This document shows, piece by piece, positions 9,747-43,600 of a stretch of 64,000 nucleotides of DNA (position 1 is its first letter; each line of letters opens with the position of its first letter). Origin of the DNA: Eledone cirrhosa (Eukaryota); the NCBI GenBank assembly GCA_964016885.1, contig OZ024742.1:281728001-281792000 (forward strand). The letters run 5' to 3'. Position numbers and translations under genes: made by a program. The notes beneath the pieces are model-generated. The model had not been told where the DNA came from. It was given only the letters and a program-made list of their open reading frames with translations, and searched no databases.

Positions 9747-11091
9747 CAAAATTTCCTGGCTTCTCTCCCAGGTCATCAAGCCTCTACTCTCCACCTTCCC
9801 CGGACATGTCAGTAGCTCCGACGAAGTTATACGTAGATTACACCAACTCCAGCCAGAACAACTTAAACTTAATAAATACGCTTTTAGCCTCGACGTTGTC
9901 TCCCTCTACACTACAGTCCCCGCTCACCCAGCTGTCGATTTATTGACGGACCGCGTGGTCGCAGAGAACATCCACTGCTACGGCCTCCACCCGACGGACA
10001 TACACCAACTTTTGTCCTTCACAGTAGACAACACGTACTTCACCTTCCACCACCACACATACAGACAGACAACAGGATTACCCATGGGATCCAGCCTCTC
10101 GGGCCTGCTGGCCATCACTTACATGAACCAGCTAGAATGCCGAGCCCTCAACACCTGCCATTCCCATGCCTTCTTCACCCGATATGTAGATGACATACTC
10201 ATCCTTACATCATCCCGTGAGGAGGCAGAGAAAATATACACAACATTCTCCAGCATGGACGCCAGTATAAAGTTCAGCATGGAACACCCCGATGACCGCG
10301 GATCCCTATCCCTGCTGGACTTCCAACTCAGGGTAACAGAGGAAGGCAACATCCACACCTGCTTCTATAAAAAATCCACCAGCCGGGACCTGTTCATACA
10401 TTTCAGATCGGCCCTCCCACTCGGTGCCAAGTTCGGATACATAAAGAACGAACTGGCACGTATCAAGAACAAATGCACCGACGCCAGAGACCGAGACACA
10501 CACACCACACATTTCCTGGAAGTACTCAAACTGAACGGATACACGACATCCACCACAAACCGTGCCAGAAAGAACAGAGGACACCACACCCGAGGCACTA
10601 ACACTTGCTTCCTGTAGCTCCCACACTTCAGTGAAGAAACAACAACAGCCATCCGCAGAGCCATCAGACGAGAGGGTCTGGATATTCAACTGGCCCATTC
10701 GGGTCCTTCTTTGCGCGGACGGCTGGCTAAGAGACACTCCACCAGACATGACAACTGCTGCAGACTAGCCAACTGCCCCATCAACGACACAGACCTATGC
10801 CACCAGGCTTACGTAGTCTACAGACTAGAGTGTGACAAATGCAACAACTTCTACGTAGGTAGCACCACCAGACCACTCCACATAAGAATAAAAGAACACC
10901 TCAATACTAACGCTTCCTCATTTAAGAAACACCTAGTTAAATGCAAAAACACCGATAAAAACATAACAGTTAGGATAGAAACTAAGGAAAGAAACCTCGG
11001 CAATCTTAGAATCAAGGAAGCACTTATTATAGATAGAACACATCCACCAATCAATAATAGACTAGAGCTCAACACCCAATTTATAACCTGA
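9747..11091 (+). pseudogene. PLE RT-GIY-YIG ORF with one in-frame stop (TAG 10615-10617)
   Basis: ORFs 9622..10617 and 10711..11091 share a frame and the intervening codons are open. The N-terminal IY run is flanking microsatellite. Confidence 0.9.
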
Positions 11092-11493
11092 TAGGGCCTC
11101 TAGCGCCATTTTTACACACCCCACACACACGCACGCGCACACCTCCACTTATTCTCTCTCACACATACACACACAAAACCAGTTCTAACACCAGATAACA
11201 CCTACCCCCCACTTTTACGATTAGACCTATCTTCCCACACTCACACACACACACACACATACCTACACCTTCATGCATTCTCCCACACACATATACAGGC
11301 ACGCATTTAAAATTTAAAAAAACAATACAAAAACAAAAACAAAACATAAACAAACCCCTCTTAAAGGGAGACTACTCTTTATCCACCTAATTTTAATTCT
11401 TTGATATTAAAGTTAGAACAGATACTCTATACTATTTCCGGTCAGCATGGTTTCATTAAAGATATAAACACGCTGGACTGAGACCTTTACTTC

Positions 11494-11528
11494 CCTCCGA
11501 AGAAGAGATATTATCTCGAAAATTAAGG
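11494..11528 (+). ncRNA. Degenerate minimal HHR (U4 to C)
   Basis: CCU CCGAAGA A GAGAUA-U-UAUCUC GAAA AU UA^AGG. Confidence 0.55.
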
Positions 11529-11642
11529 ACATTTAAATAAATTCAAGGTGAAAGACGAATTCACATCAATATCTTTCACTATTGCATTCTTTTTTCTATG
11601 TCCATATCTGCATTGTCTTGGCCTTATTACACATATTCTAAC

Positions 11643-20179: not shown

Positions 20180-20362
20180 CTCTATTGATTTTTCGCTGGA
20201 TTTCACTAAATTATGTTGGATAAGTCTATATCCTGATTCATTTTGAATCGAGTTTGAATTATTTTTCCCACATCTTACCTTAACTATTTTCCCATTTTGA
20301 CGCTATAGTCACATATATATTATGGAATACTGTTGGCTTCTTGCTACAATACTTTCTATACC

Positions 20363-20367
<5 letters not shown>
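20180..20367. repeat. TA-flanked dispersed repeat, inverted homolog at 42713-42897
   Basis: Shared ...CCCATTTTGACGCTATAGTCACATAT...ATGGAATACTGTT... Confidence 0.75.
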
Positions 20368-20457
<90 letters not shown>

Positions 20458-29487: not shown

Positions 29488-29559
29488 TGATGTGTTGGTA
29501 TAATGGTAGCACAGTGGTCTGGATAACCAAAGATGTGGGTTCGACTCCCATGTACGTCA
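29488..29559 (+). pseudogene. tRNA-like sequence (pseudo-tRNA or SINE head)
   Basis: A box TGGTATAATGGT, T arm GTGGG-TTCGACT-CCCAT, acceptor-like TGATGTG/TACGTCA, anticodon-like arm TGGT-CTGGATA-ACCA. Confidence 0.55.
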
Positions 29560-39716: not shown

Positions 39717-39759
<43 letters not shown>

Positions 39760-39761
39760 GA

Positions 39762-39878
39762 ACGATCGACTTTCGTCAAATCGGACCGAGGAAACAATGT
39801 TTCCGTTGGTCTTTCCAATTGCTAATACTATCTATCGGTCGCAACTCAAGGTAGAAGGAGCGCCGTGAAATAAAGTGA

Positions 39879-40436: not shown

Positions 40437-40660
40437 CGTGGCTGAGTAGTTAGATAATTGGATTCGCAGTCGTGAGGTTGTGAGTTCGATTCCCGGAGCG
40501 GGGATGCGTTATATTCTTGAGCAAGACACTTTATTTCACGTTGCTCCTTCTACCTGGATTTGTGACCGATAGATAGCATTAGCAATTGGAAATACCAATG
40601 GAAACATTGTTTCCTTGGTCCGATTTGACGAAAGTCGATCGACTATAGAACTTCGATTTC
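40437..40660 (+). mobile_element. Family S2 tRNA-derived SINE with a CORE-like domain
   Basis: A box GTGGCTGAGTAGTT, B box GAGTTCGATTCCC, then CTTGAGCAAGACACTT resembling the CORE-SINE CCTTGGGCAAGTCACTT. Confidence 0.75.
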
Positions 40661-40675
40661 ACTAACCTTCCGATC

Positions 40676-40726
<51 letters not shown>

Positions 40727-40792
40727 GAAGAGAGAAGAAACATTTAGATATAATTAGTAATAAAATGTATCATACCTAAACTGTTCCTAAAT

Positions 40793-40880
40793 TCCTCGAC
40801 TACGTAGTTTCGTGGCATAAACAAAAACAATATATCAAAGATATAGAGTCCTTGCGAGGTCTGCCGACTTATCAAGAGGA
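40793..40880 (-). ncRNA. Type I HHR, U3-A8 variant, branched stem II (unit 1)
   Basis: Minus reads UCCUC UUGAUAA GU(C)GGCA-[44 nt]-UGCCAC GAA ACUACGUAGU C^GAGGA. Confidence 0.8.
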
Positions 40881-41383
40881 TACCTCATTTTACTAGTCTC
40901 AAGAACGCGTCTACACGACGTGAGAAAGAATCCCAGAAGGCGGAGGGGGAGATAGTCACGCGATATAACGGTCGAGAAACAGAGCTAAGCCTCTTATAAC
41001 CACGAAAAAAATACCACGGAGGCGGAGGGGGTATTCATATCGAGGCCGTAGAAGAGGTAGTGAAGAAGGCGAGAAGTATGAGTAATGGAAGCTTTCCAGT
41101 TGTCCCCACACTTCAAAGATTGCTCGACCAGAGGGAGTTATTAATACATTTAGAAACACACAGATACATGCGGACACACACATATATACATGAATGCATC
41201 CGCACCCAACTGTGAGTTAAGGGTGCCAACTTCACCGATGTTGCTCAATGAATGACTGGGACAGACCAATTCAATTTGAACCAGACTGAACCAGTATCAG
41301 AGTTAAAAATACATTATGAAGAGAGAAGAAACATTTAGATATAATTAGTAATAAAATGTATCATACCTAAACTGTTCCTAAAT

Positions 41384-41471
41384 TCCTCGACTACGTAGTT
41401 TCGTGGCATAAACAAAAACAATATATCAAAGATATAGAGTCCTTGCGAGGTCTGCCGACTTATCAAGAGGA
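41384..41471 (-). ncRNA. Type I HHR, U3-A8 variant (unit 2)
   Basis: Same as unit 1, offset +591. Confidence 0.8.
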
Positions 41472-41974
41472 TACCTCATTTTACTAGTCTCAAGAACGCG
41501 TCTACACGACGTGAGAAAGAATCCCAGAAGGCGGAGGGGGAGATAGTCACGCGATATAACGGTCGAGAAACAGAGCTAAGCCTCTTATAACCACGAAAAA
41601 AATACCACGGAGGCGGAGGGGGTATTCATATCGAGGCCGTAGAAGAGGTAGTGAAGAAGGCGAGAAGTATGAGTAATGGAAGCTTTCCAGTTGTCCCCAC
41701 ACTTCAAAGATTGCTCGACCAGAGGGAGTTATTAATACATTTAGAAACACACAGATACATGCGGACACACACATATATACATGAATGCATCCGCACCCAA
41801 CTGTGAGTTAAGGGTGCCAACTTCACCGATGTTGCTCAATGAATGACTGGGACAGACCAATTCAATTTGAACCAGACTGAACCAGTATCAGAGTTAAAAA
41901 TACATTATGAAGAGAGAAGAAACATTTAGATATAATTAGTAATAAAATGTATCATACCTAAACTGTTCCTAAAT

Positions 41975-42062
41975 TCCTCGACTACGTAGTTTCGTGGCAT
42001 AAACAAAAACAATATATCAAAGATATAGAGTCCTTGCGAGGTCTGCCGACTTATCAAGAGGA
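41975..42062 (-). ncRNA. Type I HHR, U3-A8 variant (unit 3)
   Basis: Same as unit 1, offset +1182. Confidence 0.8.
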
Positions 42063-43250
42063 TACCTCATTTTACTAGTCTCAAGAACGCGTCTACACGA
42101 CGTGAGAAAGAATCCCAGAAGGCGGAGGGGGAGATAGTCACGCGATATAACGGTCGAGAAACAGAGCTAAGCCTCTTATAACCACGAAAAAAATACCACG
42201 GAGGCGGAGGGGGTATTCATATCGAGGCCGTAGAAGAGGTAGTGAAGAAGGCGAGAAGTATGAGTAATGGAAGCTTTCCAGTTGTCCCCACACTTCAAAG
42301 ATTGCTCGACCAGAGGGAGTTATTAATACATTTAGAAACACACAGATACATGCGGACACACACATATATACATGAATGCATCCGCACCCAACTGTGAGTT
42401 AAGGGTGCCAACTTCACCGATGTTGCTCAATGAATGACTGGGACAGACCAATTCAATTTGAACCAGACTGAACCAGTATCAGAGTTAAAAATACATTATG
42501 AAGAGAGAAGAAACATTTAGATATGTATTTTTAACTCTGATACTGGTTCAGTCTGGTTCAAATTGAATTGGTCTGTCCCAGTCATTCATTGAGCAACATC
42601 GGTGAAGTTGGCACCCTTAACTCACAGTTGGGTGCGGATGCATTCATGTATATATGTGTGTGTCCGCATGTATCTGTGTGTTTCTAAATGTATATATATA
42701 TATATATATATGAAAAGTATAGAAATTGTTGTAGCGAGAAGCTAACAGTATTCCATAACATATATGTGACTATAGCGTCAAAATGGGAAAATAGTTAACA
42801 TAAGATATGGGAAAAATAATTCAGACTCAATTCAAAAGGAATCAGGATATAGATTTATCCAACAGAATTTAGAGAAATCCAGGGAAAAATCAATAGAGCC
42901 TTAACTCATGATAAAACAAATCTAAAGTACTCAACCTTCAATTTGGGACAACTTCAAATGCTCTGTATAGTCTTGAAAAGACTATTTCACGAACACTTTC
43001 AGTGGAGATGGTCACGGTTGGATTTCGTTCGTCAGCAGAGCTCAACATGGTAACCAAGGTCTCACTGGTAATATGCCAAAAAGTGAATTTAAAAGCAGGC
43101 TAGTTTAACATCATGCGTGGTTATTAAAATAAACGCACATGTGGAAAAACAGGGCTGGCGACGTCAGAATGAGACAAATGTTTGTTTACATGAAACAACA
43201 ATCAAAAACATTCCGAAAGAAAAGGAGTTCACCAAAAAGCAATATCATCG

Positions 43251-43326
<76 letters not shown>

Positions 43327-43519: not shown

Positions 43520-43600
43520 CCGACGGCAGAGCTCAAGCCGTTTCGACGGCTATTTCTGGACCAGAAACAGCCGTCGAAATGGCTTGAGCTCTGCCGTCGG
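43520..43600. repeat. Near-perfect hairpin with ~40-bp arms and a 1-nt loop
   Basis: CCGACGGCAGAGCTCAAGCCGTTTCGACGGCTATTTCTGG-A-CCAGAAACAGCCGTCGAAATGGCTTGAGCTCTGCCGTCGG. Confidence 0.9.

Follow-up and report, generated by a model that had tools for sequence, protein, structure and literature searches.

Our analysis reveals that a 591-bp tandem repeat in the genome of Eledone cirrhosa is, as judged from DNA-level features, a young, ORF-less, dispersed and high-copy hammerhead repeat of the non-LTR retrozyme type, each of whose arrays probably arose in a single copying step from one small RNA. We hold with high confidence that this retrozyme is inserted through twin priming by the machinery of Penelope-like elements (PLEs), and consider a circular monomer to be its probable template. 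The origin of retrozyme and Penelope tandems is debated, with circles (PMC4209133, PMC7229834), uncut RNA in vitro (PMC11167929) and unequal crossover (Li et al. 2026) all put forward in the published texts. Because the family is very young, runs to thousands of copies, obeys a strict two-site rule for its ends and carries molecule-specific variants, this question can be tested by counting, and the value of the family lies in the genomic test it provides of the proposed rolling-circle model.

Array anatomy, hammerhead motif and genomic family

The window analyzed here is a stretch of 64,000 bp. A first-pass annotation of its sequence had described three identical 591-bp units with part of a fourth and an inversion of about 170 bp, all between (TA)n tracts, and this description holds to the base: the 591-bp period is exact and mismatch-free over 40722-42524 (1,803 bp, 3.05 units), and the inverted piece at 42523-42693 is a perfect 171-bp copy overlapping the array by two bases. 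Unit positions (u1-u591) are numbered on the minus strand, with u1 at 41314. The features of the locus are:

40679..40723, no strand: left (TA)n target tract, read in the sequence
40722..42524, minus strand: arm 1, with 3.05 identical units of 591 bp; its RNA-sense 3′ end lies at site A (u2) and its 5′ end at u564
40724..41314, minus strand: reference unit (u1 = 41314, u591 = 40724)
41315..41905 and 41906..42496, minus strand: other arm-1 units, followed by a 28-bp partial unit at 42497..42524
40792..40881, minus strand: hammerhead motif 1, type I, U3-A8 core, palindromic stem III; predicted cut after 40798
41383..41472, minus strand: hammerhead motif 2; predicted cut after 41389
41974..42063, minus strand: hammerhead motif 3; predicted cut after 41980
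40798..41388, minus strand: predicted 591-nt monomer between two cuts; a second would span 41389..41979
41144..41308, minus strand: 165-nt "tail" from site A to site B, with two predicted hairpins; repeated at 41735..41899 and 42326..42490
42523..42693, plus strand: arm 2, covering u1-u171, with its RNA-sense 3′ end at site B and 2 bases of microhomology to arm 1
42691..42711, no strand: right (TA)n target tract, read in the sequence

Every window unit carries, as first annotated, one minus-strand type I hammerhead motif, with cores at 40875, 41466 and 42057. The core, UUGAUAAG, is a U3-A8 variant in place of C3-G8, a covariation that has been reported for PLE ribozymes (PMC4209133), and it is accompanied by a stem I of 4-5 bp, a 54-nt insert in stem II and a palindromic stem III; the predicted cut follows GUC, that is, u517. 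Stem III was computed at 0 kcal/mol on its own (unstable) and at -14.3 kcal/mol as a dimer pairing. The motif was not picked up by a canonical CUGANGA scan, and an Rfam search of the window returned no hammerhead match at the gathering score or at E<=5, so that the motif call rests on the pattern scan and published descriptions. The miRNA-family matches in the same search are just the inverted repeat; a tRNA match at 29489-29559 (plus strand, 43.7 bits) is possibly a SINE head. Invariance of the core across copies is a product of selecting loci by the motif.

The unit has no credible ORF, in line with the initial annotation: the longest ATG-started frame round the unit spans 75 aa, and the RT plus GIY-YIG ORF that marks an autonomous EN+ PLE is absent. 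It is a closed unit without LTR or internal region, with a G+C content below 50% (246/591). When compared with 40 shuffles, the predicted circular fold scores z -7.5 in the hammerhead sense and z -1.2 in the antisense. Changes in the hairpins keep pairing in 98.6% of cells and include five two-sided changes, each in one sequence, among sequences that are related. A helix pairing sites A and B, suggested by the alignment fold, exceeded a probability of 0.5 in only 2 of 16 full monomers and was not adopted.

Several other repeats lie close to the array. Just to its left, 39757-39850 and 40560-40678 form an inverted, TA-flanked pair of another short repeat with a palindrome. A different hammerhead-bearing element (42712-43260, minus strand, core at 43035) adjoins the right TA tract, with related pieces at 20180-20377 and at other loci, and a GC-rich palindrome of about 80 bp sits within a TA-flanked repeat at 43520-43600, similar ones being found in loci L077 and L112.

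Copy number was checked across the 3.0-Gb genome, where the exact hammerhead pattern matches 5,845 times and its control 0 times; shortened forms of the pattern add 19 matches. A DNA search recovered near-identical units on many chromosomes (among the 40 scored out of 696 candidates), and older subfamilies are present at 75-97% identity. We sampled 121 loci, comprising the window, 37 other best matches, 40 of the first 100 pattern matches of one chromosome, 8 short-stem variants and 35 loci picked by single variants; three were left unscored, two falling under the identity filter and one being irregular, and the older loci L058 and L059 stand outside this count. The sampled insertions consist of ORF-less units and arrays, and the proposal of a retrozyme-type non-autonomous element is supported. 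At one locus (L126:1275-5128) the entire two-armed insertion is duplicated 2.55 kb away with the same breakpoints, and it was counted once. The sequence upstream of the old copy L058 is single-copy.

Two further hammerhead repeats came to light during sampling. One is a second ORF-less family of about 320 nt (L159-L167, L172), with a U3-A8 core, tandem and inverted arrangements and two end sites about 30 nt apart. The other is a repeat of about 690 nt (L168:1300-2300, also L130, L053, L041 and L155) with a U3-A8 core, present as TA-flanked partial tandems.

Fixed insertion ends and relation to Penelope-like elements

The RNA-sense 3′ ends of the sampled arms fall at site A (u2-11, 76-85 nt past the predicted cut) or at site B (u167-176), two sites that share the same 8-base AT-rich motif 165 nt apart. 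The TA targeting proposed at first pass is borne out by 175 of 177 A or B ends, which run into TA. Among 62 two-armed loci, 59 combine A with B, none combines A with A or B with B, and three have an end elsewhere; the A+B loci divide into 36 of one orientation and 23 of the other. Single-armed loci (n=56) end at A in 29 cases, at B in 26 and elsewhere in one. The window obeys the two-site rule, with the long arm at A and the 171-bp arm at B. Biochemical work on a purified PLE (PMC11167929) has it cleaving and extending the two strands of the target, with synthesis beginning at two internal positions that delimit the tail. Because the A+B rule matches the PLE tail explained by two such start sites, the "inversion" is most readily understood as a second arm with priming at its own fixed 3′ site, the counterpart of a PLE tail. 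The Penelope-type architecture recognized in the first-pass annotation is thus sustained by 59 of 62 two-armed loci, with the tail at one end only, and what it described as a 5′ inversion is not a passive flip but a second arm with a fixed 3′ end of its own, located 165 nt beyond the first. In one older locus (L059, 77% identity) the alignment places the ends of both arms at A, one of them abutting a Helitron-like end and not TA; its tail was sought upstream and not found.

Arms longer than one unit are common (104/177), reaching up to 7.2 units per arm and 11.25 per locus. The 5′ ends of these longer arms are distributed uniformly round the unit (KS p 0.39 and 0.36), three arms start at the cut site, and arrest near the cut or near site A is not significant (p 0.33 and 0.12). 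In 13 of 43 A+B loci both inverted arms exceed one unit, their lengths being unrelated, and arm joints show short microhomology.

Autonomous PLEs are found in the same genome. One family encodes a 900-aa RT plus GIY-YIG protein, shows a 3,127-bp tandem period and many intact ORFs, and follows the two-site rule at every inverted locus (9/9), the tail here measuring about 45 nt. The window holds a 5′-truncated copy of this family (9747-11640, plus strand), in which the RT is followed by GIY-YIG after an in-frame stop and which ends at its site A in TA. A second family (L079, L080, L084, L088, L090, L101, L108) carries a U3-A8 minimal hammerhead; its first end falls 76-80 nt beyond the cut, its tail is about 62 nt long, and by layout alone it is a candidate partner PLE. 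The RNA-sense 3′ end of window arm 1 lies 76 nt beyond the predicted cut, in accordance with the value of about 75 nt first given; the likeness to autonomous PLEs drawn from it is partial, applying to this one family (76-80 nt) and not to two others (about 120 nt), among them the family with the PLE fragment in the window.

No parent of the unit was found through GIY-YIG loci, hammerhead-pattern relatives or local alignments. Comparison with 40 GIY-YIG loci and 10 autonomous-PLE stretches (about seven families) returned only simple-repeat matches, and no link of the unit to an RT ORF, as contemplated at first, emerged from these 50 stretches. The L079 family, similar in core and spacing, gave no significant alignment (z -0.5 and -0.4). 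Two unassigned hammerhead elements score z of about 5 against one or both unit versions, and no ORF is tied to either.

Template of the arrays

Sample-private variants, scored in 85 loci at sites covered at least twice, occur in all passes in 30 cases (17 of them over both arms), in a single pass in 146 and in some passes in four. A double change at u39-40 of locus L140 is present at one locus genome-wide and in 7/7 passes, four on one arm and three on the other, and six private variants of L140 appear in 7/7 or 8/8 passes; a triple change in L139 likewise maps to one locus genome-wide and occupies 2/2 units. Genome-wide uniqueness was checked for these two variant sets. A genome-unique variant in every unit of both arms is the prediction of one monomer copied over many laps. 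The u379 allele of the window is carried by 3/3 window units and has 19 matches at 17 loci genome-wide; among 15 loci examined, 12 of them with multiple cover, it runs throughout only in the window and in L200 (2/2). The cut site itself (u515-522) is unchanged in 233 passes, which favors a closed circle over repeated jumping, although loci were chosen by exact motif or high identity and the invariance is partly selection. The earlier notion that the array records rolling-circle reverse transcription gains genomic evidence favoring a monomer template, and is not new as an idea: tandem cDNA from circles is the mechanism proposed for retrozymes (Cervera and de la Pena 2020, PMC7229834), and circles are also proposed as template for more-than-unit cDNA in PMC4209133.

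The route we favor, and regard as quite probable, is that a borrowed PLE RT-endonuclease cuts a (TA)n tract and primes at both of the resulting ends, with a single RNA monomer, probably circular, as template. Arrays would be transcribed, and the ribozyme, acting as monomer or as stem-III dimer, would free monomers that a host ligase could close into circles. The PLE enzyme would then cut both (TA)n strands and start a cDNA at each of A and B, and the RT would circle the template for up to seven laps before the two cDNA ends are joined by microhomology and filled in.

An unlikely variant of this route keeps the twin priming and takes as template an uncut linear multimer transcribed from an existing array, uniform because its source is uniform. 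It draws on the one reconstituted PLE, for which the main substrate in vitro was RNA that had not been cut (PMC11167929), and on weak cleavage, which is reported as common (bioRxiv 10.64898/2026.07.22.740005; PMC4209133). Two observations count against the favored route: ribozyme mutants of the reconstituted PLE showed normal insertion (PMC11167929), and 8 of 9 Xenopus retrozyme dimers showed no cleavage in vitro (bioRxiv 10.64898/2026.07.22.740005). Four transversions that each occur in just two passes, one on either arm (L043, L054 and twice in L050), bear on the same question: those of L043 and L054 fit two RTs on one multimer, and all four may stem from conversion, a multimer template or a partly miscoding template base, and count against a pure single-monomer model, which does not predict them. 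Against a multimer, the order of two shared variants differs between the arms of L050, random 5′ truncation would only shorten arrays, yet young arms reach seven units, and genome-unique sets over both arms need a vanished source of at least five uniform units. Against the favored route, a source array missing from the assembly could mimic locus-wide private variants. A template consisting of a cleaved linear monomer, with the RT jumping back to the 3′ end each time it reaches the 5′ end, would impose the same monomer bottleneck and dispense with a ligase; we deem it improbable, given that no indel or extra base is seen at the cut in the 233 passes (partly selected) and that 5′ ends do not pile up there (three arms).

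Amplification in place is more improbable still. Under this satellite model, published by Li et al. 2026 (bioRxiv 10.64898/2026.07.22.740005), a short PLE-derived insertion expands through unequal crossover and gene conversion, and the one-per-arm variants could be conversion tracts; it has to contend with the 13 A+B loci in which both inverted arms exceed one unit at unrelated lengths, with unit-specific changes that have not been homogenized (146 single-pass against 30 all-pass private variants) and with copies nearly identical across chromosomes. Already largely refuted, and of negligible probability, is the reading of the unit as merely the pLTR of an ORF-bearing PLE or as an assembly artefact. 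The family was sampled in part (121 loci), and four public runs carry the unit as collapsed contigs of 620-621 nt, the length of one unit and some 30 bases more that a collapsed tandem would have; the kind of these contigs is unrecorded, and they are uninformative on strand, ends and circles. Since 104 of 177 arms traverse the whole unit and return to their own start without other sequence, the unit is not merely a pLTR, and no similarity was found in the 50 PLE-ORF stretches; unit number differs between loci and alleles are locus-specific, which together with the 5,845 motif matches speaks against an artefact. Both concerns had been raised at first pass.

Beyond a single monomer as template, the substitution pattern hints at inherited RNA editing, and is suggestive only. 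On a substitution tree of 85 loci rooted with one old copy, in which homoplasy inflates counts, A>G changes on the hammerhead strand exceed T>C on internal (25 vs 13, p 5e-4 given composition) and terminal (32 vs 14, p 2e-5) branches; unit-specific changes show no such excess (8 A>G vs 15 T>C). At u547, A>G has 30 matches at 16 loci, against 6 at 6 loci for a neighboring T>C control, and occupies all passes at 5 of 7 multi-pass loci of varied backgrounds, compared with 1/3 and 2/12 for two T>C sites. The assignment to editing is kept tentative because G>A is likewise in excess of C>T (12 vs 7; 21 vs 16), a pattern expected under selection for G-U-tolerant pairing, because of the homoplasy, because the neighbor preference of A>G changes is weak, and because among 100 loci at >=95% identity the private all-pass class contains 7 A>G and 7 T>C (p 0.26). 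A fuller scenario, in which each array preserves a single circular RNA molecule that two RTs, starting from two fixed sites, copied over several laps, with A-to-I edits inherited in every unit and host editing driving family evolution, is possible but doubtful. If true, the genome itself would prove that a Penelope enzyme performs rolling-circle reverse transcription, locus by locus, over thousands of copies.

Comparison with known systems

In LINE-1 twin priming both target strands prime cDNA and the inverted structure is joined by microhomology, as in A+B loci. There, the second start is variable and lies upstream on a linear RNA; in A+B loci its position is constant, either of the arms can be the long one, and the two can both exceed unit length. 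Closer parallels are offered by the EN+ PLE insertions described by Craig et al. 2021 (PMC8557442) and Frangieh et al. 2024 (PMC11167929), with their partial tandems, inverted 5′-truncated arm, two internal start sites, one-sided tail and AT-rich or (TA)n target. Unlike EN+ PLEs, the unit is non-coding and its arms run for many laps. Its tail of 165 nt is unusually long, exceeding the 30-40 bp reported for PLEs, at one end only (PMC8557442), and the approximately 45 and 62 nt of two autonomous families of this genome. Its two start sites have in common an 8-base motif similar to the TA target; homology to the target is lacking for the anole start site described in PMC11167929. Non-autonomous Chlamys elements such as MRC1 (PMC8557442) are comparable as PLE passengers with multicopy head-to-tail insertions; unlike this unit, they resemble their autonomous partners at the 3′ end, and their clade is described there as lacking canonical hammerheads.

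Searches of the open-access literature turned up no retrozyme paper with an A+B count, none that argues from locus-wide private variants and none on inherited editing, and the A+B two-armed anatomy and locus-wide private variants seen here were not met in the retrozyme descriptions compared. With the metazoan non-LTR retrozymes of those descriptions (PMC7229834; bioRxiv 10.64898/2026.07.22.740005) the unit shares ORF-less tandem units with one type I hammerhead each, low GC, a highly paired predicted circle, thousands of copies and the presence of PLEs alongside; it differs in its U3-A8 core, its long stem II and a parent pLTR not found here. At 591 nt it is longer than the 170-400 nt retrozymes of the 2020 paper (PMC7229834), but the initial impression that it is bigger than typical animal retrozymes is overturned by the survey of Li, Clavereau and Pollet 2026, whose units from 31 vertebrates, 3 insects and 1 coral span 51-972 bp (bioRxiv 10.64898/2026.07.22.740005). 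On its DNA-level features, the element joins the known non-LTR retrozymes and brings to them unusually good genomic evidence on mechanism; for reconstitution work it offers a 591-nt substrate whose two start sites are defined.
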